This document shows, piece after piece, positions 5,803-59,826 of a stretch of DNA of 64,000 nucleotides; the first letter of the stretch is position 1, and each line of letters starts with the position of its first letter. The stretch comes from an uncultured Spirochaetales bacterium (GTDB taxonomy: Bacteria; Myxococcota_A; UBA9160; SMWR01). Location of the stretch: the NCBI GenBank assembly GCA_964494795.1, contig CAZBSV010000074.1, forward strand, positions 1,053 through 65,052, given 5' to 3'. The notes beneath the pieces are model-generated. The model did no database searches, had not been told where the DNA came from, and was given only the letters and a program-made list of their open reading frames with translations. Position numbers and translations under genes: made by a program.

Positions 5803-5878
5803 TGGAGCGCGAGACGGGATTCGAACCCGCGACCCTCAGCTTGGGAAGCTGATGCTCTACCAACTGAGCTACTCGCGC
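5803..5878 (-). tRNA. tRNA-Gly (anticodon CCC)
   Basis: The minus strand reads GCGCGAGTAGCTCAGTTGGTAGAGCATCAGCTTCCCAAGCTGAGGGTCGCGGGTTCGAATCCCGTCTCGCGCTCCA. It folds as a cloverleaf with anticodon loop TTCCCAA and an encoded CCA. Confidence 0.95.
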
Positions 5879-14555: not shown

Positions 14556-17500
14556 TCAGGCATCGTCCCCATCCGGCACGACCACGCGCGGGGTCACGAA
14601 AACCAGCAACTCCTTGCGGCTCTCGCCGGTTTCGTCGCTTCGGAACAGTGCGCCGAGCAGCGGGATCTTGTGGAGATAGGGGACGCGCGATTGCCGCTCC
14701 GACTTGTCGATCACGTAGATTCCACCCAGGACGAGGGTTTGCCCGTCCTTGATGAGGGTCATCGTCTTGACCTGGTTCTTCGCGATGGCCGGCGAACCGG
14801 TCAGCGTGAAGACGCTGTCGTCGGGGGCGTTGCGCGTCACCGCGATCTTCATGATGATGCTCTTGTTCGCCGTGATGTGCGGTGTCACGTCGAGTTTCAG
14901 CACTGCGTCGACGAATTCGAGCTGTGCATCGCCGTTCTCGAACGTCTGGAACGGAATCGAGACGCCTTGCTCGATCGTCGCCTTGCTGTTGTCGAGCGTT
15001 ACGACTCGCGGACTCGAAATCACCTTGCCGTCGCCATTGACTTCCGCCGCCTGCAACTGCAGATCCACGTTGAATGTATCGTCGAGGATCCAGCCAGCGA
15101 GATTCAAGAATCCGTTCGGGTTCGCGGTGATCGGGTTGGCGATCAGGGCATCATTCCCCGCGGTGGGTGTGTAGAGCCAGTTGTCAGGCAACTTGTCCGG
15201 ATCTGCTCCCAGCGCCCACACGGTGCCGAATTCCCGAGAGAAATCGAGGCTTGCTTCCACGATCTTCGCCTCGATCATGACCTGCGGCGTTTGCGTATCG
15301 ATCGCCTTGATCAGCGCCGTTGCCTCAGCGATCACCGAAGGAATGTCCTTGATGATCAGCGTGCTGGTGCGCTCGTCCGTCGTGACGGTTCCGCGCTCCG
15401 GTGTCAGCAGTTGCTTGACCATGGCGGAAACCTGTTTCACGTCGGCAAAATTGACGGGCTGAAGCTTGACGATCAGGTCTTCGAGCCTTTCCTTCGAGCG
15501 GCGCTCCTGCAGGCGCATTTCCTCTTCCTGCTGGATTTCGACGCTCGGCGCGATCCGCAGAATGTTCCCGACGCGCATGAATCCGAGCCCCTTGGTGAGC
15601 AGGACGACATCGAGAGCCTGATCCCAGGGAACCTCGACCAGGCGTACCGTCACCTTGCCCTTCACGTCGTCGCCTGCGATCACGTTGAGTTCCGACACTT
15701 CAGCGATCAGACGCAAGACGTCCGCGATGTCCACGTCCTTGAAATCAAGTGAGATCCGTCGGCCGATGTATTGCTTTTCGGCCGACAAACCGCCCGGCGT
15801 CAACAAGTCGATCGCGGATTCGGGCTCGATCGAGGCGGGCATCGATTCCGAACTGGAATCGGAAGCCGGCTGCTGCGAAACATCGGAGTCAGCACTGTCC
15901 GGCGTCGAGGCAGGCACGCCCTCCAGCTGAGCCTGGGCGAGCATCGCCTGATCCTGGCTCATCGCAGGCGGCGCAACGGCCACCGCTCCGGTGCGTGGGA
16001 AATCAATCACCAGCAGTGAACCGCGGCGCGTAATCTCCGGTTGCAGATCCGCAGCGCGCTGCACGACCAACCGAACTTCGGGTTCTTCCATTTCGGGCTG
16101 ATCGAATGCGGTGACCAGCGAGATCGGACCACCGGGCTCAGGCGTAATGCGCACGGCGGCCTCAGGGTCCACCTTCGCTCCTCGGAGCGAGATGATCACC
16201 GTCTCGGACGTCGGCTCGAACACCGCGTAGTCGACCGGCGAGTCAGCCAAGACCACGATGCGATCTCGAGTGTCCTGATTGTCGAACTCGATCCCGTAGA
16301 TCGAAACGATCGCGCTGCCAGTCTCGGCGATAGCGGACTCGATTTGCTGCGTCTCCGGAGCCTCCATGGAATCGACAGGCGCGTCGATCGGATCCGCCCA
16401 GGCAGCTACTTCAGCCGGCGTCAAATCTGCTTCGACGACCGGTGTCACTGCAGCGACTTCGCCTGCCGCGATCTCGTCGGCCTCGGCACCCAGCTCATCG
16501 GGCGAGCTGCTCTGCGTCTCCGCATTGCCAATTTCTGCGATCTCGACGGGAGTTGCCATTGGAGCAGCCCCTCCCGTGGCTGCAACCAGAGCGGAGTCGA
16601 TCTCCGGCCCGCGGCCGAGGGCAATCACCAATCCAGCGGCGGTCGGCACGACCCTGCGACCATCGAAGGGCTGCGCGGTACTGCCGCCATCGACCACGAC
16701 GCGGATCTTGTCGACGTGTTCGCCCACGCGGACCCTCGACACCAGCTCCGAATCCAGTTCAATGGTCGAAAGATCCGCTGCATTCTCCAGTTCGAGAAGG
16801 TCTACCACCAGCCGCGACGGATCTTCGAGGGTGAAGGTCATCACGCTCGAGATCAATCCGTTCGCGCGAAGCTTCACGAGGACGCCCTCGCCGGCCTTCT
16901 CGACGTCCACGCCCGTGAAGCGGGTCGCGGGTGTCGGGTCTGCAGCCGCCTCCATCACATCTGCAGCCGCCTCCACCACATCTGCAGGCGCCTCCATCAC
17001 ATCTGCAGCCGCCTCCACCACGTCTGCAGGCGCCTCCATCACATCTGCAGGCGCCTCCGTCAAATCTGGGGACTGCTCAGCCGCGCTAGATGCCCAGGGA
17101 TCGAAGGCATCTGCCTGCGCGTGTTCCAGCGTCTCGGCACCCGAGTCGAGCGCCGCAGCGGCGAGATCGCCAGAAATTCGAATCTGCAATCCACCAGCAA
17201 CGAATTGCACCTCGTGCTCCGCGGGCGCGTCGAGGAAGACTTCTACGCGGGTCATTGCGTCGCTGGTTCCCGTCGAATAGGGCGCCACCAAGACCTTCGC
17301 GACGAGCCCGTCGCCTACGATCACGGGCTCGATCGCTCGATCGGCGCGCGCCGCCAGATCCACGATGATGCGATCCGGGTTCGGTTGCCCGAATGCCGTG
17401 AAGATCGGGTGATCCGGTCCGACCAGCGTAACGATGGTGTCACTTCCATCACGCTCGACCTGGATCTCCGAAATGTCCTGGTCCTGCGACGACTGAGCCG

Positions 17501-17603
17501 TCGTAGATCCGGTGCCAGCGCAGCCAACGGTTCCGCCGGCCAGCAAGGCCGCGAGCGCCGTCACCGCCGCAATGTGGAACCGACCGCTTCTAAATCCCAG
17601 CAT
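14556..17603 (-). CDS. pilQ: type IV pilus secretin PilQ with N-terminal AMIN-type domains
   Basis: The C-terminal secretin domain (...ATIEQGVSIPFQT...TLVLGGIY...RVPYLHKIPLLGALFR...ELLVFVTPRVV) is preceded by an STN/N0-like region and repeated AMIN-like modules. ATG 17603 with a GAGGGGGGG RBS inside the pilP end. Confidence 0.9.
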   Translation of the reverse strand: MLGFRSGRFHIAAVTALAALLAGGTVGCAGTGSTTAQSSQDQDISEIQVERDGSDTIVTLVGPDHPIFTAFGQPNPDRIIVDLAARADRAIEPVIVGDGLVAKVLVAPYSTGTSDAMTRVEVFLDAPAEHEVQFVAGGLQIRISGDLAAAALDSGAETLEHAQADAFDPWASSAAEQSPDLTEAPADVMEAPADVVEAAADVMEAPADVVEAAADVMEAAADPTPATRFTGVDVEKAGEGVLVKLRANGLISSVMTFTLEDPSRLVVDLLELENAADLSTIELDSELVSRVRVGEHVDKIRVVVDGGSTAQPFDGRRVVPTAAGLVIALGRGPEIDSALVAATGGAAPMATPVEIAEIGNAETQSSSPDELGAEADEIAAGEVAAVTPVVEADLTPAEVAAWADPIDAPVDSMEAPETQQIESAIAETGSAIVSIYGIEFDNQDTRDRIVVLADSPVDYAVFEPTSETVIISLRGAKVDPEAAVRITPEPGGPISLVTAFDQPEMEEPEVRLVVQRAADLQPEITRRGSLLVIDFPRTGAVAVAPPAMSQDQAMLAQAQLEGVPASTPDSADSDVSQQPASDSSSESMPASIEPESAIDLLTPGGLSAEKQYIGRRISLDFKDVDIADVLRLIAEVSELNVIAGDDVKGKVTVRLVEVPWDQALDVVLLTKGLGFMRVGNILRIAPSVEIQQEEEMRLQERRSKERLEDLIVKLQPVNFADVKQVSAMVKQLLTPERGTVTTDERTSTLIIKDIPSVIAEATALIKAIDTQTPQVMIEAKIVEASLDFSREFGTVWALGADPDKLPDNWLYTPTAGNDALIANPITANPNGFLNLAGWILDDTFNVDLQLQAAEVNGDGKVISSPRVVTLDNSKATIEQGVSIPFQTFENGDAQLEFVDAVLKLDVTPHITANKSIIMKIAVTRNAPDDSVFTLTGSPAIAKNQVKTMTLIKDGQTLVLGGIYVIDKSERQSRVPYLHKIPLLGALFRSDETGESRKELLVFVTPRVVVPDGDDA
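16939..17068 (-). repeat. 21-nt tandem repeat, about 6 copies, in-frame in pilQ (heptapeptide ADVxEAx)
   Basis: tctgcagccgcctccatcaca / tctgcagccgcctccaccaca / tctgcaggcgcctccatcaca ... encode APADVMEAPADVVEAAADVMEAPADVVEAAADVMEAAAD. Confidence 0.9.
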
Positions 17604-17608
17604 CGAAC

Positions 17609-18199
17609 TCACCCCCCCTCACTACGACGGATCCGCATTTCGATATCTTTTTTCGTCACGTTGCCCAGATAATCCACATAGGTCTCGTTGATGACGACCA
17701 AGTTGTCATCAATCGTTGTTACCATCCCTTCGTTCTTTCCGATTCGCGTGCCCTTCGCGACGATGTAACTATGACCAGCCGGGTCCTCTACCAACGCCCT
17801 CGCGGATCCCGTATTCCAGACCACCGCAACGATCGATAGTTGGCTGACGTCGAATTGCTCCAGCGGTCCGCCAGCCACTTCTTGGCTCGAGATTTCCTTC
17901 CTCTCCCACTCGAACGACCGGAACGGATCCCGCAGGCCCTCCTTGTCGTAGAGCATTCCGGGCCCGGTTCCGGCGAAGCTGCCATCGATCGCCGGTGCGA
18001 CGGGAACCGCGGCGACTTGACTCGGCTGCACGGCGGGCGCCGCCGCGGCTTCACCCTTCTTCGCCTTCCGCTCGGCTACGCGCGCGTTTAGCTTGGCGCG
18101 CTCCTGTTGAAACTCGGCCTGGGTCGGCTGGTTGGCCTCTTCTTTGCAACCGACCAGCGCCAACAATCCGATCGAGATCGCGATGGCTGCAATTTTCAC
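17609..18199 (-). CDS. pilP: type IV pilus assembly lipoprotein PilP
   Basis: GTG 18199 with GGAGGGG RBS. Lipobox LLALVGC. C-terminal PilP domain (LRDPF...LEQFDVSQLSIVAVVWNTGSARALVEDPAGHSYIVAKGTRIGKNEG). Confidence 0.75.
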   Translation of the reverse strand: MKIAAIAISIGLLALVGCKEEANQPTQAEFQQERAKLNARVAERKAKKGEAAAAPAVQPSQVAAVPVAPAIDGSFAGTGPGMLYDKEGLRDPFRSFEWERKEISSQEVAGGPLEQFDVSQLSIVAVVWNTGSARALVEDPAGHSYIVAKGTRIGKNEGMVTTIDDNLVVINETYVDYLGNVTKKDIEMRIRRSEGG

Positions 18200-19429: not shown

Positions 19430-20508
19430 TATGAGTCCACCCTCCGCAACGCGAGCCCAACACCCACCCCGAGAGACGGCGCGAGGTCCTCTAGATAGGA
19501 TGAGTCGAACCTTGAACTCGGCGCCATGCGCGCAAGCGGATTCAGCAACTCGACCGGGAGGCCGGTTCTTTCGTGAAATGCGTTCTCGAATCCTGCGACG
19601 CAGGAGCTGCCGCCCGACAGGTAGACCCGCTCGATCCGACTGTCAGCGGTCGTCGCGGCGTAAAAGTCGAGCGAGCGACTGATTTCGCCAATCACGGTAT
19701 CGGAGACCGTCCGCATCGCCTGCTCGACCTCTTGAGGCACGACTTCCTGGCTGACTTCCGAGCGCCTTCCACCGAGCTTGAGCCGTTCGGCTTCTTCGAA
19801 GCTCACTGTCAGGGCCTTTTGGATTTCCTCGGTGTACTGATTTCCCGCCGTTGTGATGTCGCGCGTGAAGGCCGGAGCGCCGTTCGACACGATGTTGATG
19901 TTGACCACCTGTGCGCCAATGTTTACGAGCGCTACCGTCTGGTTTTCGCTGGTGTCGTAGTTGGCTTCGAACGCGTTCTCGACCGCAAACGCGGCGACGT
20001 CGATGGCAGCCGGAATCAGGCCTGCCTCCGTGATCACCTGAACGTAGTCGTCGATCAGATCCTTCTTGGCAGCAACCAGCAGCACGTCCATTTGCCCTTC
20101 CGTGCCACCAGAGTCCAGGATCTGGAAGTCGAGATTTACCTCATTCACGTCGAACGGGATGTATTGCTCGGCCTCCCAGCGAATCTGTTCTTCGAGTTCC
20201 GCCCGCGACATGGTCGGTAGACTTACTTTCTTCACGATCACCGAGTGCCCGCAGACGGCAGCTGCGGCGTATTTCGTCTTGATCTTCCCATTCTCGATCG
20301 CTTCACGAATCGCATTTGCGATCGCGCTCGAGTTCAGAAAGGCTCCCTGCACGATCGCCTCGTTGGGCAGCTTTGCCACACCAATGTGGGTTAGCTCGAA
20401 CTCGCGATCCCGCCCTTTGATCATGATCTCGACCGCTTTCACGCTCGAAGATCCGATGTCCAGGCCAATCATTGATTTTCCGCCGAAGTTTCCGAACCTA
20501 AACTTCAC
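19429..20508 (-). CDS. pilM: type IV pilus assembly ATPase-fold protein PilM
   Basis: Actin/FtsA-like fold motifs (IGLDIGSSSVKAVE, LVNIGAQVVNINIV, VYLSGGSS). GTG start overlapping the upstream HTH gene stop (GTGA). Confidence 0.9.
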   Translation of the reverse strand: MKFRFGNFGGKSMIGLDIGSSSVKAVEIMIKGRDREFELTHIGVAKLPNEAIVQGAFLNSSAIANAIREAIENGKIKTKYAAAAVCGHSVIVKKVSLPTMSRAELEEQIRWEAEQYIPFDVNEVNLDFQILDSGGTEGQMDVLLVAAKKDLIDDYVQVITEAGLIPAAIDVAAFAVENAFEANYDTSENQTVALVNIGAQVVNINIVSNGAPAFTRDITTAGNQYTEEIQKALTVSFEEAERLKLGGRRSEVSQEVVPQEVEQAMRTVSDTVIGEISRSLDFYAATTADSRIERVYLSGGSSCVAGFENAFHERTGLPVELLNPLARMAPSSRFDSSYLEDLAPSLGVGVGLALRRVDS

Positions 20509-20834
20509 GATTCACAGCCTCCGTCGGCCTGGGACTGCCTTTGGGGTGAGTTCTGACTTGCGCCTGCGCCTCGCGAAGCATCCGAGCCGCGGTCGCTTTG
20601 GAGTGCTTCGCTTCGAGAGACTGCCGATCCCATCGGGGCGGTTCCGAAGACCTGAGACTTTTCGGAAATCTTCATTCCGAGCGCGAGCAGGATCTTGCGC
20701 TTGGTATCGAGACGGCAGGCACGGCCGGCTTCGACGCGATCGATCGTCAAGGTGGAGAGGCCCGCCTTCCGAGCGAGCTCGGCCTTGCTCATCATGAGCG
20801 ATTCGCGATAGCGCTGGACGTTATTGCTCGGCAC
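20505..20834 (-). CDS. XRE-family helix-turn-helix protein
   Basis: 109 aa. HTH_3-like segment (MSKAELARKAGLSTLTIDRVEAGRACRLDTKRKILLALG). GTG 20834 preceded by GGGGGAGGGGG. Confidence 0.7.
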   Translation of the reverse strand: MPSNNVQRYRESLMMSKAELARKAGLSTLTIDRVEAGRACRLDTKRKILLALGMKISEKSQVFGTAPMGSAVSRSEALQSDRGSDASRGAGASQNSPQRQSQADGGCES

Positions 20835-21080
20835 CGCCCCCTCCCCCTGCCTGTCGGATGCCAGCGGCTGATGGCTCGAGCCCCAGGTTCGACGTTCGAG
20901 AGTATCGGCGTGCTGTTACGGGGACTTGAGAGAACCTGCGTCCGGTGCATGGTGTGGCGGATCACCGCCTCGGATGCGCAACTAGCCGGCAATCGAGCGG
21001 GCGAGGTGGGGGTATGGGGGCAGGTCTTCGGCCTGGGGCTGCCTCAGGATCCCGCGGAAAATCACCGATACGCAGGCACG

Positions 21081-22439
21081 ATGCCCGATCGCATTTTGCT
21101 CATCGAGCCCGATCTGAACACGCGAGACGGCCAGCTGATCGCGTTGTCCGAGCTCGGTTTCGATGCCGTGGCAGTCCTCGACGCCGAGCAGGCCTTCCGG
21201 GCGATCGCGGAGGCGCCACCGGACATCATCCTCTGCGACGCCTTCGCCCCGGGCACGGATGATCTCGAACTCGTTTGGCAGCTCTGCAGGCGCGCGCCCG
21301 AAGCAACCCTGTTGGTGACCTCCGCACCGAGCGACTACGAGGCAGCGATGGAGGTCGCCCTGCGAGGCGCTCACGATCACATCAGCAAACCGCTGCGTCC
21401 CTCCGAGCTTCGATTGAAGCTGCGCAACGCGAAAGAGCGGGCGCGGCTGAGCGGCCAATATCGGCTTCTGCGCTGGGAAATTGCCAAAGTGATCGGCGAG
21501 CGTCCGATCGTCGCAGCGTCCGGCCCGATGATTCGGCTGCTCGAGAATATGGAGCGGGCGGCTGGCTGCGAGAGAACGCTCCTGCTGGTCGGCGAATCGG
21601 GAACCGGAAAAGAGGTCATGGCGCGCGCGATTCACGCCCTTTCGAGCCGACGCCATCACAGCTTCGTCGCCGTGCAATGCGCGGCAAGATCGGCCGAGTC
21701 GATATTGGCAGAGCTTTTTGGCGACCGTTCCGCGGCGCCGAATTACGGGGAGCGAACGCAGCGGGGCCTCTTTCAAGACGCCGAGCGGGGCAGCCTGTTT
21801 CTGGACGAAGTCGGAGAGCTGCCGATCCGCGTTCAAAACGAACTCCTCCGCGTGTTGAACGAAAAGCAGGCCGAATCGAGTTCGGAGCCCAGATCCGGCA
21901 CGGTCGATATCCGAATCATCGCCGCTACGGCCCGAAACCTCCGACAAGACGTCTCCGATCGCCGGTTCGAAGCGGAGCTCTTCGAGCACCTCGATCCCCT
22001 CCGACTGGATATCCCTGCTCTACGGGATCGACGCGAGGACATTCCCCTTCTCGTCGATCATTTTCTCGACCACTACCGGCACGAGCTGGTGAAGCCAATC
22101 CGCGGGATCGCGGAAGACGCGCTCGAACGACTCGTCGCGCATCCGTGGTTCGGAAACATTCGCGAGCTGAAGAACGTGATCGAATCGGCCGTCATGTTCG
22201 CGCGCGGAGAGCGGATCGCGATCCAGGATCTTCCACCCCGAATCCTGCTGGCTCCTGCGGCAAGCGACCCGCTCCGCGACGATCTCTGCCTCAAGCGAAG
22301 TCGTCGAGCCTTCGAAATCGACATGATTCGAAGGGCACTGCGCGCCACCGGCGGCAACCGCACCCACGCCGCGAAACGGCTCGAAATCAGCCATCGCGCG
22401 CTGCTCTACAAGATCAAAGAGTATGGGATCGACGCCTGA
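21081..22439 (+). CDS. response regulator with AAA+ bacterial enhancer-binding-protein domain and Fis-type HTH, lacking the GAFTGA motif
   Basis: REC (DIILCD acceptor, ISKPL). Walker A GESGTGKE, Walker [11 protein letters not shown]-terminal GGNRTHAAKRLEISHRALLYKIKEYG. Where GAFTGA is expected (after ELFG) the sequence is DRSAAPNYGERTQ. Confidence 0.85.
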   Translation: MPDRILLIEPDLNTRDGQLIALSELGFDAVAVLDAEQAFRAIAEAPPDIILCDAFAPGTDDLELVWQLCRRAPEATLLVTSAPSDYEAAMEVALRGAHDHISKPLRPSELRLKLRNAKERARLSGQYRLLRWEIAKVIGERPIVAASGPMIRLLENMERAAGCERTLLLVGESGTGKEVMARAIHALSSRRHHSFVAVQCAARSAESILAELFGDRSAAPNYGERTQRGLFQDAERGSLFLDEVGELPIRVQNELLRVLNEKQAESSSEPRSGTVDIRIIAATARNLRQDVSDRRFEAELFEHLDPLRLDIPALRDRREDIPLLVDHFLDHYRHELVKPIRGIAEDALERLVAHPWFGNIRELKNVIESAVMFARGERIAIQDLPPRILLAPAASDPLRDDLCLKRSRRAFEIDMIRRALRATGGNRTHAAKRLEISHRALLYKIKEYGIDA

Positions 22440-22443
22440 GCGC

Positions 22444-23832
22444 TCAGGCGTCGTCCGAGGAATCGAGCCCGAGCTTCTCGAGTCTATATCGAAACGAGCG
22501 AAAGGAGATGCCAACGAGCTGGGCGGCTCGCTTCTTGACCCCGTTGGCGGCCTGCAGCGCCTCTTTGAGCAGGCTCCGCTCGTACTCGTTGACCATCGCC
22601 TCGAGGTCGATTCCGCCACTGTTCGTGATGCGGCGCGGCTCGCCAAATTCCGCGGGACTCAGCACGACAGGAGGAAGTGACTCGAGGTCGATCACCTCCG
22701 TACGACTGAGCGCAACGGCCCGCTCGACCACGTTCTCGAGTTCCCGGACGTTTCCGGGGAAGCGATACTCACTCAACCTGGCCATCGCCTCATCGCTTGC
22801 GTGCGTGACGGCCTTCTCGAGCTCGGTCGAATATTTCTCGATGAAATGAGTGACCAACAGCGGAATGTCTTCCTTTCGATCCCTCAGTGGAGGGAGCGGG
22901 ATCTCGATCACATTCAGCCGGTAGTAGAGATCTTCTCGAAAGCGCCCAGCGACCACTTCTTCATCCAGGCGCCGGTTGCTGGCTGTGATGATCCTGGCGT
23001 CAGAGCGGGCATCGGTGGATGCGCCCACTCGCCGAAAACATTTTTCCTGGATTGCGCGGAGAAGCTTCACCTGAACCGAAAGCGTCAGTTCGCCGACTTC
23101 ATCGAGAAACAGCGTTCCGCCGTTCGCGACCTCGAATAGCCCCTCTTTGTTCTGAACCGCTCCGGTGAATGCGCCCTTGACGTGGCCGAAGAGCTCCGAC
23201 TCCAGCAGGGTCTCGGGAATCGCCGCGCAATTGACTGCCACGAAGGCCTTGTCGCGACGCGGGCCGCCCTGGTGGATGGCACGCGCGACGACTTCCTTAC
23301 CGGTTCCACTCTCTCCGCTGATCAGTACGTTTGCCTTGCTGTCCGAAACCTGGGCGATGAGTTCACACACGCGCCGGATCACGACGCTGTTCCCGATGAT
23401 GGAGCGGTCGCGGCTCTGGCTCCGCAATTCCCGGCGCAATCTGCGGTTTTCACTCGAAAGAAGTTTCTTCTCGAGCGCTTTTTCCACCACGATCCGAAGC
23501 TCGTCGACCTTGAATGGCTTCGTCACGTAGTCGTAAGCACCTTCTTTCATCGCGCTGATGGCGGTCTCCGTGCTCGCAAACGCGGTGATCATGATGACTA
23601 TGGTCTCGGGCGAGGTCTCGGTTGCCGCGTGAAGAAGATCGATCCCCGAGCGGCCTGGCATCTGAATGTCGGAGATGACGACGTCGAAATCATCACTTTC
23701 AAGCTGAACCAACGCCGTGTCGACGTCGCCTGAGGTGACGACGTCATAGCCCTCGCTCCTGAAGAAGATCTCGAGAAACTCCTGCATGCTGCGTTCGTCA
23801 TCGACGACGAGTATGCGAGCCTTGGCGCTCAA
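22444..23832 (-). CDS. pilR: sigma-54-dependent response regulator PilR
   Basis: REC ([10 protein letters not shown]), [21 protein letters not shown], Fis HTH. Follows pilS with a TTGA overlap. Confidence 0.85.
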
Positions 23833-25532
23833 TCCGAATTCTCCGCTCTCGGTATCCGGAGTCGCACCGTCGTGCCTACGCCCACACTGCTCTCCAGATT
23901 GACCGTTCCGCCGTGCTTCTCGACGATTCGATGGACGGTCGCCAGGCCAAGGCCCGAGCCGTCGCGTTTGGTGGTGAAGAAGGGATCGAATATTCGATCC
24001 AGTTTGTCCGGCGGTACTCCGACGCCGTCATCTGCGACGGCAATCTCCAGCCAGCCGACCCTCTTTTCCCCCTCCCCGCTTCTTCGGTCCTCTTCCGAGC
24101 TCGCTTGAGATCGGCCGACATCCAGAGCCCTGGCGCTGACCTGCAATCGGCCACCGCCAGGCATGGCTTGCACTGCGTTGAGAACCAGATTCCACAAGAC
24201 CTGCCGCAGCTGCGCGGAGTCCGCGAGAGCCGTCAGCTGGTCCTCCAGCGCGACGTCGATCTCGATTCCTTCGGGCTTTGTGGCTTCGAACATCTTGAGA
24301 ACCTCGCCGATCGCCTCTCGGAGCGAGACCGCTTCCAATCGGAGCGGGCCCGGACGCGCGTAGCTCAGGAAATCCGAGATCAGGTGGTTGAGCCGATCCA
24401 CCTCTCGCAACACGATGCCCATCAGCTGTTCCGAATCGATCGAGCCTTCCTCGCCAGCCCTGCCATCCTTCAGCATCTCGATCGAGCCGGATATCGCCGC
24501 CAATGGATTCCGAATCTCGTGCGCGATGCTTGCTGACAGCTCGCCGATCGCCGCGAGGCGCTCGGATTGACGCAGGCTGGTCTCCATCTCCACCACATCG
24601 GTGACATCCTGGAAGATCACCACGTGCCCCTCGGCTTCGGCTTCTCGGTCGCGCAGCGCATAGGCTCCGATGCCGAGGTACCGAAGCGTTCGATCATGAG
24701 CCTGATAGGTCATCCGCCTGCGGGAGCGCGAGCTCTCCTCCGGCAGGAGACCAACGCCAAGCAGGTAATCCGAAATTCCCGGCAGAACCAGCTCCACGTG
24801 TTTTCCGATGACTTCTGCCCGATCCAATTTCGTGATTCTTTCCGCCTCCGAGTTGAATGACGTGATATGTCCGTCGAGGTCTGTCGTCATGAGGCCGCTC
24901 TTGAGGCTCTCCACCGTGCGCTCGTGAAGCGTCTTCAGGCGGCTGAGGTCGCTGGTGCGTTGCACGAGCGCCTCTCCGGTCCGCAGCAATTCCGCCGCAA
25001 GCAAACTCGCTAGCCACGCGACGAGAATGATGCCGGCCGCGTTGACCAGCCACATGCTCAGCAGGACGGGCATCGGTTCCGGCGGCCCAATCTCGTGTAC
25101 TGGGAGCCAACCCTGATGGCCGGCCAGGATCACCAATCCATAGACGGAAGCGCCGGTTACGGCACAGATCATCGCTCCGCGCCGCTCCAGCAGCATGGAG
25201 CCGTATACCGCGATGAGGACGTAGAGGAACGCGAACGGGGAATCGGAGCCGCCCGACAGATGGACGAGCGCACTGACGATTGCGATGTCCGTTGCGATGT
25301 TCAGTACAGAAAAGCGCTGGATTTTTTTGACACGGCGAAAGATCAGCCCGTAGGCAATCGTTGCCACGAAAGCGAAGATCAACGTGCCGTAGAAGCCGCG
25401 CCACTCGGCAGGCGAGTAGCTCCAACCCGCGGCCTCCAGCGCGACGGCGATTCCGAGGCTCAGCAACGAAAGCGCGAGCCGAGCCGCCATCAGGATCAGG
25501 AGTTTCTTCTCGAGTCCATCATCGGCGCTCAA
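23829..25532 (-). CDS. pilS: sensor histidine kinase PilS
   Basis: Multi-TM N-terminus, PAS-like region, H-box SASIAHEIRNPL, HATPase_c (DDGVGV...GSGLGLA). TTG 25532 with GGGGAGAG RBS. Confidence 0.8.
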   Translation of the reverse strand: MSADDGLEKKLLILMAARLALSLLSLGIAVALEAAGWSYSPAEWRGFYGTLIFAFVATIAYGLIFRRVKKIQRFSVLNIATDIAIVSALVHLSGGSDSPFAFLYVLIAVYGSMLLERRGAMICAVTGASVYGLVILAGHQGWLPVHEIGPPEPMPVLLSMWLVNAAGIILVAWLASLLAAELLRTGEALVQRTSDLSRLKTLHERTVESLKSGLMTTDLDGHITSFNSEAERITKLDRAEVIGKHVELVLPGISDYLLGVGLLPEESSRSRRRMTYQAHDRTLRYLGIGAYALRDREAEAEGHVVIFQDVTDVVEMETSLRQSERLAAIGELSASIAHEIRNPLAAISGSIEMLKDGRAGEEGSIDSEQLMGIVLREVDRLNHLISDFLSYARPGPLRLEAVSLREAIGEVLKMFEATKPEGIEIDVALEDQLTALADSAQLRQVLWNLVLNAVQAMPGGGRLQVSARALDVGRSQASSEEDRRSGEGEKRVGWLEIAVADDGVGVPPDKLDRIFDPFFTTKRDGSGLGLATVHRIVEKHGGTVNLESSVGVGTTVRLRIPRAENSD

Positions 25533-54255: not shown

Positions 54256-54700
54256 CCTTTCCCGTGACGCCCATCAGCTGACGCAGGGTCGCCTTCAGCT
54301 TTGCGTCGTCCCAGGGTTTCGTGACGAGCGCGCGGATGCCGATCTCCGCGAGGCGCTCGGGCGGAATCTCCTGGGTCCAACCCGTGATCAGCATCCGAAT
54401 CGCATCGGGACTCGACTCCGCCGCTCGCTCGAGCAACTGGACACCGCTCATGCCGGGCATCTTGTGATCGGAGAGGATCGCGTCGACGCTGCGCTCGGCG
54501 AGAACCCGCAACGCAGCTGCCGCACTTTCGACAGCGACGATCTCGTAGCCCTCGCGGCGAAGTGACCGCTTCAGCGCGGAGAGGATCTGGGCTTCGTCGT
54601 CGACGAGCAGGAGTGTGGGCCGAGTCGATCCTGTTTTGACTTTCGATCCGGCCTTGCCCTTCAATCCGCGCCCCTTTCTCGGTCCGCACCCGGAAGCCAT
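54191..54700 (-). CDS. single-domain CheY-like response regulator
   Basis: LLLVDDE, ILSDHKMPGMSG, LITG, VTKPW. 65-nt convergent overlap with the preceding plus-strand gene. The start overlaps the kinase gene end. Confidence 0.8.
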   Translation of the reverse strand: MASGCGPRKGRGLKGKAGSKVKTGSTRPTLLLVDDEAQILSALKRSLRREGYEIVAVESAAAALRVLAERSVDAILSDHKMPGMSGVQLLERAAESSPDAIRMLITGWTQEIPPERLAEIGIRALVTKPWDDAKLKATLRQLMGVTGKASRREADSGTPDRSSDYSLRR

Positions 54701-56286
54701 ACCGTGAACCGGGTTCCCACACCGGGTTCGCTGTCGGCCACGAGACTGCCGCCGTGGCGTTCGACGATGTTGAAACTCGTCGACAACCCCAGGCCGGTAC
54801 CGACCCCGACTTTCTTCGTGGTGAAGAACGGATCGAAGATCCGGCCCATGTGTTCGGGAGCGATTCCCACCCCCGTATCCCTCACGATGATCGCGACGCC
54901 GCCCGCCCGGGGCTCCGTCTTCAGCCAGATCGTTCCCGTCTTTCCGCTGTCTCCAATCCGCTCTTCGACGGCCTGATAAGCGTTGACGAGCAGGTTCATG
55001 AACACCTGCTGCAGCTGCATCGGGTAACAGTAGACGGCGGGAAGGTTGCGATACTCCTTCTCGAGCTGCACCAGGTGTTTCATCATCGGCCAGACGATGC
55101 CCGCCGTCGAATCGAGGAACTGGTTGACGTCCGCCAATACGCGGTGCTCGCTGTCGCGGTGCGAGAAATCGCGCAGGTCGTGAACGATGTGGCGAATCCG
55201 CTCGGATCCCTCTTGCGACTCGCGAATTGCCTTGGCGAAATCGGAGAGCACGAACGCGACATCGAGTTCCTTGGCAGCCGCAGTCAGCGCACTCGAACTG
55301 CGTTGGATCTCGGCGAGATCCGCACCCGCCACGGCTGCCTGCAGCGCATCGACTTCGCGCCAGGCGCGCTGCAGGTCACCCAGGTACTCGGCCATCTGGA
55401 ACAGATTTGCGTGAATGAATCCCATCGGATTGTTGATCTCGTGGGCGACGCCGGCAGCGAGCTGCCCGATCGAGGCCATCTTCTCCGTCTGCAGGACTTT
55501 GCGCTGCAATAGCTTTATTTCGGTGAGATCCGAGAATACGGCGACGGCGCCGAGCTTGGCGCCCGCGCTATCGAAGACCGGCGCGCTGGAGATTCCGATC
55601 GGCACGCTCGTCCCGTCGGCTCGCGTGAGGGTCATCTCCATCCCCTTGAAGCGCTCCCCGGTTTCGAGCGTGCGCGCGACGTGATTCTGATCGCGCGGAA
55701 CCCCGCGGAAGCAGCTCTCGATCAGCTGCCCGCGCAATTGCTCCGCGTTCGCACCGAGGATCTCCTCGGCCGGAGGGTTCGAGAAGGCGATCCGGCCCTC
55801 GAGATCGACCACCAACAGCGCGCTATTCAAGTTTTGGATGATGTTCTGGTTGTAGCTCTCGAGGTCGCGGATCCGACGCTCCGCGACTCCCTGGTCGCGA
55901 GCCGCTCGCCAGCGCTGAATCTGCTCCAACGCAACCACGGGCAGCACGTCCGAAAATTCCTCGCCCGCAACCACGCAATCCGCCGCGCCTCGCCGGAAGG
56001 CTTCGAGCGCGGCTTCCTCACTCGGGCTGCAGTGGACCACGATCACCGGCGGGCCATCGACCTTGAATGCTTCGAGCAAATCCCAGCATTCGGAACCGAG
56101 CGCCGACTCCACGACGATCAGGTCGACCGGCGCATCCCGGCATCGGCCGCGGCAGGCAGCCGCATCGCGCACGGTCTCGATCGCTGCGCCCGGACCCAAC
56201 CGGCGCAGGGCCATGCCGGGGTCCGGCCCGGCGGACTGCGCGGAGCGCGCAACGATGATCCGAACTCCGGCGCGCGCTCGCTCCAC
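54661..56286 (-). CDS. histidine kinase with N-terminal pseudo-receiver, PAS, HisKA and HATPase_c domains
   Basis: The REC-like N-terminus has E at the acceptor position (DLIVVESAL). PAS-like region (LNSALLVVDLEGRIAFSN), H-box AAGVAHEINNPM, N/G boxes (LLVNAYQA; DTGVGI; GTGLGLS). Confidence 0.85.
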   Translation of the reverse strand: MERARAGVRIIVARSAQSAGPDPGMALRRLGPGAAIETVRDAAACRGRCRDAPVDLIVVESALGSECWDLLEAFKVDGPPVIVVHCSPSEEAALEAFRRGAADCVVAGEEFSDVLPVVALEQIQRWRAARDQGVAERRIRDLESYNQNIIQNLNSALLVVDLEGRIAFSNPPAEEILGANAEQLRGQLIESCFRGVPRDQNHVARTLETGERFKGMEMTLTRADGTSVPIGISSAPVFDSAGAKLGAVAVFSDLTEIKLLQRKVLQTEKMASIGQLAAGVAHEINNPMGFIHANLFQMAEYLGDLQRAWREVDALQAAVAGADLAEIQRSSSALTAAAKELDVAFVLSDFAKAIRESQEGSERIRHIVHDLRDFSHRDSEHRVLADVNQFLDSTAGIVWPMMKHLVQLEKEYRNLPAVYCYPMQLQQVFMNLLVNAYQAVEERIGDSGKTGTIWLKTEPRAGGVAIIVRDTGVGIAPEHMGRIFDPFFTTKKVGVGTGLGLSTSFNIVERHGGSLVADSEPGVGTRFTVWLPGADRERGAD

Positions 56287-56420: not shown

Positions 56421-56500
56421 TTGGCTGGACTCGGTTCACCCTGGTCAGCCTCGGATCGCCCTGGTCAGCCTCGGATCGCCCTGGTCAGCCTCGGATCACC
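56421..56500. repeat. 20-nt tandem repeat, 3 exact-phase copies plus 1 degenerate
   Basis: ctggtcagcctcggatcgcc at 56441, 56461 and 56481, preceded by a degenerate copy. It lies in the 209-nt spacer between the activator gene stop (which it overlaps) and the kinase gene start. Confidence 0.85.
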
Positions 56501-57920
56501 GTGGCTGGGTGCGAATCTTCGAGGCGATGTCGTGCTTGGCGAGTTTGCGGTAGAAGGTGCTGCGCCCAATTCCAAGCATATTCGCAGCCGCGCTGGCGTC
56601 CCCCGCGCATTCCGCCAGCGCGCGCTCGAGCGCGCATCTCTCGTAGGCGTCCAGGGAAATCGGTAGGCTCGTCGGAGCGAGCGCCGAAACGGCTCGCGTC
56701 GCGGGTCGATTGATCGCGAGATCCGAGACGCGCAGACGCGGCCCGCGCGCGAGCGCCATCGCCGACTCGATGATGTTCTCGAGCTCGCGAACGTTGCCCG
56801 GCCAATCGGATGCCATCAGAAGTTCGAGCGCTCTCTCTTCGATGCCCTCGACGCGCGAATTCTCATCTGCGTGCTTGCGGAGAAAATGCTGCACGAGCAG
56901 CGGAATGTCCTCGCGCCGCTCCCGAAGCGGAGGGATCACGATCCGAACCACGTTGAGTCGATAGAAGAGATCCGTTCGAAACCGACCTTCCTCCACCATC
57001 GTCGCCAGATCGCGATGGGTCGCCGAAATCACGCGAATGTCGACGGGGACCGCACTCGCCGCGCCCACGGGCCGAACCTCTTTCTGCTGCAGGGCTCGCA
57101 GCAACTTCGCCTGGACGGCGGGCGGGATCTCGCCGATCTCGTCGAGAAAAAGGGTCCCGCGGTTCGCGATCCGGAACAGGCCTGGCGCACCAACCGCACC
57201 GGTGAATGCACCCTTTTCATGCCCGAACAACTCGCTCTCGATGATGCTCTCCGGCAGCGCCCCGCAGTCGACGGGAACGAAGTCGCCTCCCGATCGCGGG
57301 CTCGCGGCGTGAATCCCGCAGGCCACCAACTCTTTGCCGGTTCCACTCTCCCCCTGCAGCAGAACATGACTCTCGTTGTGCCGGAGGCTGTGAATCTTGC
57401 TCGCAAGAGTACGCATCGCCGGCGAATTGCCGACGAGCGCCGGGATCGAGGCGCGCGCGCGCAGCTCCGTTTCGAGTTCCCGGTTGCGGCGGACCAACCT
57501 GCGCCGCTCGATCGCCTTGCGCACGGTCGTCTGGATCCGATGCACGTCATCGAACGGCTTTTCGAGATAGTCGAAGGCGCCTTTTCGGATGCAACCGACC
57601 GCGCTCTCGATACTGCCGTGACCGGTCATGACGATCACTTCGATTTCGGGGCGCGCGCTCTTGATCTGCTCGAGCAGTGCGAGCCCGCTGACCGGTCCGA
57701 GCAAAAGGTCCACCAGGGCGACGTCGAGGCGCGGATCGGAGAGATGCGGCGTCGCCTCGCTCACGGACTGCGCGAGCGCGGTTTCGTAGCCCGCGCGCTC
57801 GAGAACGCGCTTGAGCGACTGGAGCAACAGCGGCTCGTCGTCGACCAACAGAACGAAGCCCGAGGCTTCGGGCGCCGAGAAGCGGCGTGCGTCGGGCGAT
57901 TCCGCGCTCGCAGGTGTCAT
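56496..57920 (-). CDS. sigma-54-dependent NtrC-family response regulator
   Basis: REC (VALVDLLLG), [21 protein letters not shown], Fis HTH (AANMLGIGRSTFYRKL). ATG 57920 is preferred over TTG 58001. Confidence 0.85.
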   Translation of the reverse strand: MTPASAESPDARRFSAPEASGFVLLVDDEPLLLQSLKRVLERAGYETALAQSVSEATPHLSDPRLDVALVDLLLGPVSGLALLEQIKSARPEIEVIVMTGHGSIESAVGCIRKGAFDYLEKPFDDVHRIQTTVRKAIERRRLVRRNRELETELRARASIPALVGNSPAMRTLASKIHSLRHNESHVLLQGESGTGKELVACGIHAASPRSGGDFVPVDCGALPESIIESELFGHEKGAFTGAVGAPGLFRIANRGTLFLDEIGEIPPAVQAKLLRALQQKEVRPVGAASAVPVDIRVISATHRDLATMVEEGRFRTDLFYRLNVVRIVIPPLRERREDIPLLVQHFLRKHADENSRVEGIEERALELLMASDWPGNVRELENIIESAMALARGPRLRVSDLAINRPATRAVSALAPTSLPISLDAYERCALERALAECAGDASAAANMLGIGRSTFYRKLAKHDIASKIRTQPR

Positions 57921-57955
57921 GGAAGTCGTATCGGTCCCGAATTCGGGACGCTTGA

Positions 57956-59536
57956 ATGCCGAGGTCGGGGTCTCTAAGATACCCGGCGCCCCCTCCGCCA
58001 AGCGGAGTCAACCCACTGCGCAGCTCCAACATTCTCGTCGTCGATGACGAGGAACTCTATCGGCGAGCCCTCGAGCGCATTCTCGTCCGCGCCGGGCACC
58101 AGGTTGCCACCGCGCGAGACGCGATGGCGGCGCTCAGCCTCGTCTCGAGTCAGCCGACCGACCTCGTCCTGGCCGATATCCGGATGCCGGGCATCAACGG
58201 CCTCGAATTGGTGCGACAGATCCACGAGATTGCGCCGGATCTGCCCTGCATCGTCATCACCGGGCATGGCAGCCCCGAAAGCTCGGTGGAGGCGCTGAAG
58301 GCCGGAGCCTACTGGTACCTCGAAAAGCCCTTCGACCAGGGGCATCTCGATGTCGTTCGCAGGCTCGTCGAGCAGGCCATCGAGCACGGCCGACTCAAGT
58401 CTGAGAATCGAATGCTCCAGGGTCAGCTGCGTTCGCGGTATCGATTCGAGAACATCATCGGCACCAGCGCCGCGCTGCGCGGCGTGCTCGAAACCGTTTC
58501 GAAAGTGGCCGCTTCGGACAGCACCGTCCTCATCACGGGTGAGAGCGGAACCGGCAAGGAACTCGTCGCGCGCGCGATCCACTTCAACAACAAGCGGGCG
58601 GACAAGATGTTCGTAACCGTCAATTGCGGGGCGATCCCGGAAGAACTTCTCGAGTCCGAACTGTTCGGCCACGTTCGCGGCGCCTTCACGAACGCGGTCG
58701 CCAACCGCGAAGGCCGATTCTCCGTCGCCCACGAGGGAACGATCTTCCTCGACGAAATCGGCGACATGAGCCCCACCTTGCAGGTGAAGTTGTTGCGCGT
58801 ACTGCAGGATCGGACGTTCGAGCCCGTCGGTTCATCGAAGACCCAAAGCGTCGACGTGCGCGTGATCGCCGCCACCAACCAGAATCTCGACGAAGCGATC
58901 GCGCAGCGCCGCTTCCGCGAGGATCTCTACTATCGACTCAACGTGATTCCGATCGTGGTTCCTCCGCTGCGAGATCGCCGCGACGACATCCCGCTGCTCG
59001 CGCAGCACTTCTTGAACCTCGCCAACGAGGGCCGAGGCGAGCGGGCCGTGGAATTCTCCGACGAAGTCATCGCGCGATTGGCAGAATTCGACTGGCCCGG
59101 AAACGTGCGTGAACTCGAAAACCTCGTGGAGCGCATGGTCACGCTCTGCTCGGGCCGTGAAATCGTCGCGAGTGACCTTCCGAAGTCGCTGCAGAAGAGC
59201 GCTCCGCCGCGCCCGTCGGCGCCGCAGATCCCACCCCAAGGCTTGAGCTTTCGGGACGTCGTGGACCAGTTCGAATCGGACCTGATTCGCCAGGCACTCG
59301 AAATCACCCACGGCAACAAGAACCGCGCCGCGCAGCTGATCCAGATGAATCGCACCACGATGCTCGAGAAGATGAAGAAGAAAGGCGTCAAGTTCGATGC
59401 GGGGTCGAGCGATTCAACACGAGTGGACGGAACGCTTCGCGCCGAGGCTGCCGATCCGCGCGAAGTCGACGGGTTCGCAAACACGACCGCTGGCAGCGAA
59501 GCCGGCGACTCGCCAAACCCGCGGCGCACGCACTGA
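57956..59536 (+). CDS. sigma-54-dependent NtrC-family response regulator with variant GAFTNA loop
   Basis: REC (LVLADIRMPGING), [21 protein letters not shown], Fis HTH (GNKNRAAQLIQMNRTTMLEKMKK). Divergent from the previous activator with only a 35-nt spacer. Confidence 0.85.
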   Translation: MPRSGSLRYPAPPPPSGVNPLRSSNILVVDDEELYRRALERILVRAGHQVATARDAMAALSLVSSQPTDLVLADIRMPGINGLELVRQIHEIAPDLPCIVITGHGSPESSVEALKAGAYWYLEKPFDQGHLDVVRRLVEQAIEHGRLKSENRMLQGQLRSRYRFENIIGTSAALRGVLETVSKVAASDSTVLITGESGTGKELVARAIHFNNKRADKMFVTVNCGAIPEELLESELFGHVRGAFTNAVANREGRFSVAHEGTIFLDEIGDMSPTLQVKLLRVLQDRTFEPVGSSKTQSVDVRVIAATNQNLDEAIAQRRFREDLYYRLNVIPIVVPPLRDRRDDIPLLAQHFLNLANEGRGERAVEFSDEVIARLAEFDWPGNVRELENLVERMVTLCSGREIVASDLPKSLQKSAPPRPSAPQIPPQGLSFRDVVDQFESDLIRQALEITHGNKNRAAQLIQMNRTTMLEKMKKKGVKFDAGSSDSTRVDGTLRAEAADPREVDGFANTTAGSEAGDSPNPRRTH

Positions 59537-59808: not shown

Positions 59809-59826
59809 TTGGCACAGCGCGTGCTT
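59809..59826 (+). promoter_or_regulatory. sigma-54 (-24/-12) promoter motif
   Basis: TTGGCACAGCGCGTGCTT has GG and GC separated by exactly 10 nt, with one mismatch to TGGCAC-N5-TTGC. It lies about 90 nt upstream of the FliA-family sigma gene. Confidence 0.6.

Follow-up and report, generated by a model that had tools for sequence, protein, structure and literature searches.

How does a homologue of the sigma-54-dependent enhancer-binding proteins (EBPs) come to be kept inside a type IV pilus (T4P) gene cluster after losing the loop with which EBPs contact sigma-54? The question is raised by a gene at positions 21081 to 22439 of a 64,000-nucleotide stretch of contig CAZBSV010000074.1 (assembly GCA_964494795.1), taken from an uncultured bacterium that GTDB places in Myxococcota_A; the whole stretch is referred to here as the window. 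A preliminary description made from the letters alone had proposed that the encoded protein lacks the GAFTGA motif of the L1 loop and probably acts without sigma-54. Comparison of the gene with its relatives makes it likely that the product is an orphaned regulator, in the position occupied by PilR2 in the type IVa pilus (T4aP) cluster of myxobacteria, which binds DNA without activating sigma-54 and is probably an unswitched dimer. The gene and its main domains are as follows.

21081 to 22439, plus strand: atypical EBP homologue gene, an ATG to TGA open reading frame (ORF) of 452 amino acids (aa) with a receiver (REC) domain, an NtrC1-type linker, an AAA+ domain, a lid and a Fis-type helix-turn-helix (HTH)
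21093 to 21422, plus strand: REC domain, aa 5-114; D53, S81 and K103 are kept and the acidic triad reads E9-P10-D11, not DDD
21510 to 22004, plus strand: AAA+ core (Sigma54_activat, PF00158), aa 144-308
22302 to 22424, plus strand: Fis-type HTH (HTH_8, a Pfam match), aa 408-448, which includes GGNRTHAAKRLEISHRALLYKIKEYGI; the block is invariant in the orthologue clade described below

The protein matches the Pfam families Response_reg, Sigma54_activat, AAA_lid_14 and HTH_8. The first two matches score below those of the other three EBPs of the window, at 44.7 bits versus 85-104 bits for Response_reg and 149 bits (E 1e-43) versus 218-243 bits for Sigma54_activat. An AlphaFold2 (AF2) model with a mean predicted local distance difference test (pLDDT) score of 73 confirmed the fold, with the L1 and L2 loops disordered; the model and the Foldseek search are informative on fold, not on oligomeric state. 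The start MPDRILLI is common to most clade members and lies in the same place as the start of canonical relatives. Some gene callers begin at a GTG at about 20949, yielding products of 494-496 aa (P0001, P0003, P0016-P0018); the conservation of this N-terminal extension (20949-21080) reflects conserved non-coding DNA blocks, not coding sequence.

The loop itself was examined first by position and then by motif.

21723 to 21764, plus strand: L1 loop DRSAAPNYGERTQR, aa 215-228, with AAPNYG (21732-21749) in the place of GAFTGA

Within the context ELFG-DRSAAPNYGERTQR-GLF the loop is equal in length to that of the adjacent PilR, and AAPNYG aligns without gaps with the GAFTGA of PilR and, in a HMMER alignment, with that of A. 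aeolicus NtrC1 (4L4U, 1NY5). The motif has thus been replaced by substitution, without an insertion or deletion. No G[AS][FY][TS] motif was found in the whole protein or in the other two reading frames of the loop stretch, and none of the tolerated GAFTGA variants (PMC4641369) occurs in the protein. Residues 218-226 have pLDDT values below 50, and across the clade the loop is hypervariable, differing from protein to protein. The other three EBPs of the window read GAFTGA, GAFTGA and GAFTNA, as the preliminary description had stated. It had also named two ways in which the loss might prove false. A shifted but intact motif found no support in the gapless alignment or the three-frame scan. The alternative of a sequencing error or frameshift was rejected as well, since a Logan assembly of run SRR9952630 (L001, 4685 bp), which is independent of the window, differs from it by one synonymous base and the orthologues all lack the motif.

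Loss of the contact loop is accompanied by changes at other signature positions of the EBP family.

21591 to 21614, plus strand: Walker A GESGTGKE, aa 171-178; G171, G176, K177 and E178 are found in 44/44 clade members
21795 to 21818, plus strand: Walker B LFLDEVGE, aa 239-246; the window protein has both the Asp and the Glu
21855 to 21902, plus strand: L2 loop region, aa 259-274; the conserved E-E-V-R-P-x-G is lost
21966 to 21992, plus strand: arginine-finger region FEAELFEHL, aa 296-304, where FREDLFYRL is expected
22152 to 22169, plus strand: sensor II GNIREL, aa 358-363, intact; R361 is invariant in the clade and in canonical relatives

The L2 loop reads EKQAESSSEP, as compared with EEEVRPLGES in relatives, and its residues 265-274 have pLDDT values below 50. 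Both arginines of FRxDLxxRL are replaced in the alignment, with E297 opposite R293 and H303 opposite R299 of NtrC1, and the middle acidic residue of the receiver is a proline (EPD). The earlier view that the REC, AAA+ and HTH domains are intact therefore holds for Walker A, Walker B and the HTH, but not for L2, the two FRxDLxxRL arginines or the acidic triad of the receiver. Since GAFTGA, L2 and the FRxDLxxRL arginines were each looked for and none was found, the homologue is not a canonical EBP.

Besides the window protein (P0001), a search of 5.8 billion proteins recovered about 45 clusters (55-70% identity); almost all are about 452 aa long and originate from metagenomes or from metagenome-assembled genomes (MAGs) labelled Deltaproteobacteria or Myxococcota. 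GAFTGA is absent from every orthologue in this clade, including all 44 full-length members (44/44), which answers the question, raised in the preliminary description, of whether relatives also lack it. The proposal that the protein acts without sigma-54 is supported by this clade-wide loss and by the near-neutral, hypervariable loop. The clade was not found among the matches listed in a scan of GTDB species representatives, where the best listed match had 53% identity, and a metagenome scan returned only 6 clade loci.

The 44 full-length members were compared site by site with 68 GAFTGA-bearing relatives; these were picked for having the motif, so that the comparison is circular for the L1 columns and not for the others. 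Constraint has been lost in the clade at H215, G218-A223, E243, R265/P266/G268, D299, R303 and K103 of the receiver. H215 and all six GAFTGA positions, which were selected for in the canonical set, are variable in the clade. Position 243, the Walker B Glu, is E in 68/68 canonical relatives but G in 23, E in 19, R in one and Q in one of the clade members (25/44 without Glu). The L2 Arg, Pro and Gly (R 64/68, P 66/68 and G 68/68 in canonical relatives) are lost, D299 (D in 68/68) is variable, and R303 is kept in 26/44 as compared with 68/68; R297 is kept in 41/44 clade members. In the receiver, K103 is present in 14/44 clade members against 68/68 canonical relatives, and position 10 is P in 36, A in 6 and S in 2 clade members against D in 68/68. 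Walker A, D242 of Walker B and R361 of sensor II are invariant in the clade, and D53 is found in 43/44. Mean column entropy is higher in the clade for the AAA+ core (0.99 versus 0.49 in canonical relatives), lower for the HTH (0.38 versus 0.61), which is thus more conserved in the clade, and similar in the two sets for the REC domain, the linker and the lid. Taken together, these columns show that constraint is relaxed at residues which serve no purpose outside an assembled ring that hydrolyses ATP: L1, L2, the trans-acting arginines and the Walker B Glu. The AAA+ fold has been retained, as have the residues that bind the nucleotide, the coiled-coil linker of NtrC1 type and an HTH that is invariant.

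Pairwise dN/dS among ten clade loci was 0.175 over the whole gene, falling to 0.08 in the HTH and rising to 0.46 in L2 and 0.76 in L1, values which are approximate because dS, at about 1-1.4, is near saturation. W66, W132, T80, H98 and E102 are newly fixed, clade-specific residues. Both the dN/dS pattern and these residues show that the gene is functional and that its sigma-54-contacting loops are not; the gene is under purifying selection, with L1 and L2 evolving almost neutrally. The many lost signature residues, and an AAA+ core about twice as variable as that of canonical relatives, are what would be expected of a decaying relic or a pseudogene in the making. However, ORFs of about 450-452 aa are intact in at least 44 clade clusters, and these, together with the overall and HTH dN/dS values, led us to reject the pseudogene explanation; the newly fixed residues speak against it too, as the near-identical independent assembly does against an assembly or frameshift artefact. 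We regard a relic or an artefact as extremely improbable.

The surroundings of the gene provide a second line of evidence.

22444 to 23832, minus strand: pilR, a canonical GAFTGA EBP, convergent with the EBP homologue at the junction where relatives carry a HAMP histidine kinase
23829 to 25532, minus strand: pilS, with domain matches to 6TM_PilS, PAS, HisKA and HATPase_c
20505 to 20834, minus strand: HTH_3 (XRE-type) gene, 109 aa, which overlaps the start of pilM by 4 bp and is the first gene of the pilMNOPQ operon

The gene map confirms the placement given in the preliminary description: the homologue occupies a pilS2R2-type slot flanked by pilR and pilM, converges on pilR and has no kinase gene beside it. 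All checked clade loci that reach far enough share one order: pilB-pilT-pilC-pilS-pilR, the EBP homologue on the opposite strand, and HTH_3-pilM-N-O-P-Q on the first strand again. As is typical of the T4aP cluster of myxobacteria, pilB is linked to ribF in the window. The HTH_3 gene is divergent from the homologue and occurs in the checked clade and canonical loci that reach far enough; it also precedes pilM in more distant Myxococcales-type loci and heads the operon in the decayed families described below. A description as PilR (beside a 6TM PilS, with GAFTGA) fits the neighbour at 22444-23832, not the homologue, and L001, whose product is identical to the window protein, gave no PilR match above about 55% identity over the homologue gene; more distant relatives share 33-35% identity with PilR. 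No pilin, pilA or any other (searched by the G-F-T-L-I-E motif), was found in 1-64000, nor between pilR and pilM in particular, and the homologue is therefore not placed to control an adjacent pilin gene. No block of minor-pilin and PilY1 genes was detected beside it, such as several canonical relatives have there.

The nearest GAFTGA-bearing proteins (46-53% identity) come from Myxococcota MAGs and occupy the same slot, divergent from HTH_3-pilMNOPQ. Being in the identical slot, they are positional orthologues, and the slot is that of PilR2 in the myxobacterial T4aP cluster. In their loci the EBP and pilR have a HAMP-HisKA-HATPase_c kinase (about 510 aa) between them. In some this kinase converges directly on the EBP; in others about 8 kb of inserted sequence, with minor pilins and PilY1, lies between the two. 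The kinase was seen in canonical loci with roughly 8-10 kb of downstream sequence, except L018 (about 8.6 kb) and L023. By contrast, in all degenerate-L1 loci with readable downstream sequence pilR lies 11-58 bp away and there is no kinase; these are 12 clade loci together with L024 (GAFAGA), L026 (GAFAGA, Walker B DR) and L035 (GGASSG). In the window the stop codons of the homologue and pilR are 4 bp apart. This convergent junction (22437-22446) has no terminator-like hairpin between the stops, and convergent transcription may interfere there. No PilS2-like HAMP kinase was found in the 64-kb window, where the only matches were PilS and an unrelated PAS kinase, at about 30% identity. Relative to the GAFTGA-bearing positional orthologues, the missing kinase is a specific deletion that coincides with decay of the loop.

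Loss of the kinase bears on whether the receiver is still in use. The protein could be controlled by phosphorylation, from PilS or a distant kinase, and act at sigma-70-family promoters as Rhodobacter and Caulobacter NtrC do, which lack GAFTGA yet require phosphorylation. In accordance with this the window protein has D53, S81, K103 and D11, the first of them near-universal in the clade. However, the middle acidic residue is Pro, Ala or Ser in 44/44 clade members, the receiver Lys is lost in 30/44, and the same Asp is altered in further lineages that are kinase-less or degenerate (DQD in L024, DED in L026 and L038). Several deeper relatives lack the phospho-Asp altogether, and the window offers no PilS2-like partner. 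We consider control by phosphorylation unlikely.

Those deeper relatives were recovered with a profile of the clade. In a search of 1.84 billion cluster representatives the main clade collapses to one representative at 50% identity, and at least 23 further representatives at 37-45% identity were found that are far more decayed. All of these lack GAFTGA, and many also lack the phospho-Asp, the Walker A Lys, Walker B or the arginines. The sensor II motif is kept in most of them, and the HTH motif GGNRT-AA-LL-ISHRALLYK in all at least 23, as it is in canonical relatives. Three decayed representatives could be placed on contigs; all are kinase-less, with pilR directly downstream. Decayed relatives in the same slot (P0125-P0196; loci L171, 8001-9374; L172, 1730-3085; L173, 556-1929) look like true pseudo-receiver, pseudo-ATPase proteins, as judged by their residues. 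In P0129, for instance, the phospho-Asp has become Ser, Walker A reads GARGTGRE and Walker B VYFDEI, and the HTH is unchanged. The window protein stands at the mild end of this decay series.

Trees were built by neighbour joining (NJ) with 200 bootstraps. The main clade received 90% support; the superclade in which it is joined by L024 and every decayed representative received 94%, a grouping that long-branch attraction could inflate as the trees are NJ only. L026 grouped with canonical sequences at 90% and L038 at 98%, whilst L035 was unresolved; the placement of L026 and L038 among canonical sequences means that decay arose at least three times. Myxococcales-type EBPs that are co-directional with pilM (L053-L075, 40-43% identity) fell outside the family in the NJ tree.

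The decayed relatives also bear on two further explanations. In the first, the homologue would still have a part in sigma-54 activation, though only within mixed rings with a canonical EBP such as PilR, either as a structural partner, in the manner of HrpR/HrpS, reportedly a co-operating EBP pair, or as a natural poison subunit by which the output of PilR is tuned. Conservation of the AAA+ fold, of Walker A and of sensor II would suit such a role, as would the constant place of the gene directly beside pilR, but identity to PilR is only about 33-35% and the HTH differs from that of PilR. Moreover, the ring-interface arginines are lost in the window protein and variable in the clade, and more decayed relatives persist without the Walker A Lys and Walker B, which argues against a need for ring chemistry; we give mixed rings little weight. 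In the second, a ligand would control the protein in the style of VpsR or FleQ, with cyclic di-GMP (c-di-GMP) or another small molecule binding at the AAA+ or REC domain; neither phosphorylation nor hydrolysis of ATP would then be needed. Both VpsR and FleQ turn up among the matches by structure and sequence, VpsR has decayed in a similar way (no GAFTGA, an altered Walker B), and the residues of the nucleotide pocket are conserved here where the catalytic ones are not. However, VpsR and FleQ are less similar to the window protein than NtrC1 or NtrX, and the loss of Walker A in strongly decayed relatives makes a conserved nucleotide-type pocket doubtful for the family as a whole. Ligand control seems improbable to us.

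An orphaned regulator that still occupies DNA accounts better for these observations, and could have arisen as follows. In a lineage of uncultured Myxococcota the neighbouring HAMP kinase gene has been deleted, and the loops and catalytic residues for sigma-54 activation would have been lost after that, whilst the DNA-binding domain was kept. The protein could then presumably no longer remodel sigma-54 holoenzyme. In the off-state dimer of NtrC1 and DctD it is the unphosphorylated receiver that holds the AAA+ domains, and the homologue has 1NY5 as one of its top structural and sequence matches. By analogy with the NtrC1 off-state, a protein deprived of its kinase would stay on the DNA as a dimer that is never switched, and may still bind ATP. 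Its retained job would be occupancy of the sites used by its canonical ancestors, resulting in repression or in activation of the sigma-70-family type, for which NtrX (a repressor), VpsR and Rhodobacter NtrC may serve as analogues. The nearest candidate target would be the conserved divergent control region of the pilMNOPQ operon.

Several points weigh against this account. The kinase gene could have moved elsewhere in the genome, our view being limited to 64 kb, and the partnership of kinase and EBP is inferred from adjacency and co-loss, the kinase being co-directional with pilR. The off-state dimer is transferred to the window protein from NtrC1, and AF2 confidence is low in the linker. The window protein keeps the Walker B DE, D53, S81 and K103, so that there may be some ATP turnover, and residual phosphorylation, for example by PilS or a distant kinase, may occur. 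The near-saturation of dS and the possible long-branch attraction mentioned above count on the same side.

The candidate target was examined in the following elements.

20835 to 21080, no strand: divergent intergenic region, 246 bp, with several conserved non-coding blocks (9 clade loci aligned), candidate control elements for both units
20903 to 20929, minus strand: TCAAGTCC-N12-GCCGATA, a sigma-28 (FliA/WhiG)-type promoter-like box facing HTH_3-pilMNOPQ
20951 to 20966, no strand: palindrome GGTGTGGCGGATCACC, a candidate operator that precedes the inferred pilM-operon start by about 62 bp and the only exact match in the window

The intergenic blocks were also compared with canonical and strongly decayed loci. 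Judged against the sigma-28 (FliA/WhiG) promoter consensus, the box TCAAGTCC-N12-GCCGATA has one match in the window where none (0) is expected. It occurs in 42/173 related loci, in each as one copy on the minus strand upstream of HTH_3-pilM (for example L002, 9955-9981; L004, 9849-9875; L172, 1554-1580), with a second copy about 10 kb away in L028 and L029. This suggests that the operon for the pilus machinery is driven by sigma-28, not by sigma-54. The GGACTTGAG block was at one point taken as a plus-strand -35 box or an EBP site; this was dropped, a consensus sigma-70 scan being empty and the block, when read on the minus strand, agreeing with a pilM-operon promoter of the sigma-28 type. 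The palindrome takes the form TGTG-N8-CACA in canonical relatives and there resembles a CRP site; the HTH_3 protein and a CRP-like factor are equally plausible as the binder of GGTGTGGCGGATCACC. Both the palindrome and a direct repeat GCAAC-N5-GGCAA (about 20978-20993) are conserved in this region.

No good match to a -24/-12 promoter (TGGCAC-N5-TTGC) was found in the intergenic region or in clade and canonical flanks of up to 10 kb on each side, and matches across the window numbered 16 where 18 are expected by chance. Sigma-54 targets of the homologue or of its relatives may lie outside the scanned flanks. Rfam identified no RNA family in the intergenic region; its only match in the window is a tRNA gene at 5806-5878 on the minus strand.

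A broader picture, which we offer tentatively and hold to be rather doubtful as a whole, is that of a large, fast-evolving radiation of pseudo-EBPs in the Myxococcota T4P cluster, for which receiver and ATPase would be dispensable and in which a permanent dimer would control the sigma-28-type pilMNOPQ promoter or compete with PilR-type activators at shared enhancers.

Elsewhere in the window a FliA/WhiG-family sigma factor gene is found at 59915-60679 on the plus strand; its match to TIGR02479 scores 277 bits, where the cut-off is 190. The next gene upstream is that of the GAFTNA EBP at 57956-59536 (plus strand), and a sigma-54-like -24/-12 box, TGGCACAGCGCGTGCT, precedes the sigma factor gene at 59810-59825 (plus strand). 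There could be a cascade, predicted from these positions, in which an EBP acts through sigma-54 on sigma-28 and hence on pilMNOPQ. No flagellar genes were found among about 10 other ORFs sampled between about 33.9 and 63.2 kb. The GAFTNA gene is divergent from a GAFTGA-bearing canonical EBP gene at 56496-58001 (minus strand); the longest ORFs of the pair overlap at their 5′ ends, and their true starts must therefore lie further in. A PAS histidine kinase gene at 54661-56286 comes after the EBP gene at 56496-58001. In the pilus cluster, pilQ (14556-17612, minus strand, 1018 aa) has an N-terminal low-complexity tandem repeat, EAPADVMEAPADVVEAAADVME..., at about 16908-17030, between AMIN-like regions.

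As a single gene the homologue is ordinary in kind; the informative part is the order of events, in which the kinase would be lost first and the coupling to sigma-54 next, with DNA binding retained. Where known atypical EBPs are isolated end-points, a graded natural series is found here in one syntenic slot. It runs from canonical members with GAFTGA and an adjacent kinase, through kinase-less members with only a Thr-to-Ala change (GAFAGA), to the clade of the window with neutral L1 and L2 and the Walker B Glu usually absent, and on to deeper relatives without the phospho-Asp and the Walker A Lys, the HTH being the same throughout. Such a series lets one ask which function preserves the EBP scaffold once activation is gone. 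On the broader and rather doubtful picture of a pseudo-EBP radiation, the protein would be a natural "repressor-only" remnant of a dual-function sigma-54 activator, and living intermediates from GAFTGA through GAFAGA to loss of the motif would document, step by step, a sigma-54 activator becoming a regulator of the sigma-70-family type. Genes of this kind, routinely labelled "sigma-54-dependent Fis family regulator" or "AtoC", should stay out of counts of sigma-54 regulons, and for pilus biology a sigma-54-independent regulator is predicted beside pilMNOPQ.

How, then, does the gene compare with systems already described? About 2% of the EBP family are homologues whose GAFTGA is defective (PMC3162934), among them TyrR, DhaR, HupR, VpsR, NtrX, PhhR, HsfA and the NtrC proteins of Rhodobacter and Caulobacter (PMC6158489, PMC3162934). 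The literature thus agrees with the preliminary description, which had cited Rhodobacter NtrC, HupR and TyrR as EBPs that are independent of sigma-54. Such proteins have been proposed as evolutionary links between sigma-54 and sigma-70 control (PMC6158489). With its EBP-type AAA+ domain, defective GAFTGA and altered ATPase residues, the window gene appears to be of this kind. However, its NCBIfam scores lie far below the cut-offs (258/600 bits for NtrX, 192/576 for TyrR and 268/559 for NtrC), and it is therefore not a member of the NtrX family. By sequence it is orthologous to none of these three, its nearest relatives being the GAFTGA-bearing EBPs of Myxococcota pilus clusters.

Amongst solved relatives the best-scoring is A. 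aeolicus NtrC1 (4L4U, 1.5e-67), which aligns without gaps over REC, coiled-coil linker, AAA+ and HTH. Unlike the window protein, it has GAFTGA, L2 and R293/R299 and activates sigma-54. The top Foldseek match of the full-length model is NtrX (5m7o, E 5.5e-33). Brucella abortus NtrX shares the REC-AAA+-HTH architecture and a non-GAFTGA L1 and is a repressor, but it is alphaproteobacterial, its L1 is shortened and its kinase NtrY is kept. Vibrio cholerae VpsR, which matches by sequence (7v2b, 6e-40) and by fold and has the same architecture, is a sigma-70 activator that has no GAFTGA and an altered Walker B, and needs neither ATP nor phosphorylation (PMC6158489). It is not orthologous to the window gene, whose closest relatives are pilus-cluster EBPs with GAFTGA. 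VpsR is c-di-GMP-controlled and directed at biofilm genes, and the loop of the window protein is full-length and substituted.

The NtrC proteins of Rhodobacter capsulatus and Caulobacter are likewise response-regulator EBPs without GAFTGA, and act at sigma-70 promoters. That of Rhodobacter is phosphorylation-dependent and requires binding of ATP, not its hydrolysis, which matches a protein whose nucleotide pocket is conserved and whose catalytic residues have been lost. However, in these NtrC proteins L1 is deleted (at least 8 residues), NtrB is kept and the targets are nitrogen genes. E. coli TyrR, DhaR, R. capsulatus HupR and M. xanthus HsfA resemble the window protein in their defective GAFTGA and work with sigma-70, but have other sensory domains or regulons. 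M. xanthus PexR was considered as a further precedent and rejected, as it retains GAFTGA; it is an EBP that also represses a sigma-A promoter, so that dual activator-repressor EBPs do exist in the same phylum.

By position the closest counterpart is PilR2 of Myxococcus xanthus, a second NtrC-like regulator whose gene lies beside pilM within the T4aP cluster; it is not part of PilS-PilR, and T4P-dependent motility requires it (PMC6060248, PMC6211767). The window gene is likewise NtrC-like, lies between pilR and HTH_3-pilM and is distinct from pilR. It differs from the PilS2-PilR2 system in that it has no PilS2-type kinase, is divergent from pilM, with which PilR2 is co-directional, and has lost GAFTGA; since the pairing with a kinase is absent, the likeness is positional and the gene is not a demonstrated PilR2. 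From the atypical EBPs described so far it is set apart by a full-length, substituted loop, a place in a T4P cluster, loss of the kinase, graded decay amongst its relatives and decay of the receiver along with the loop.

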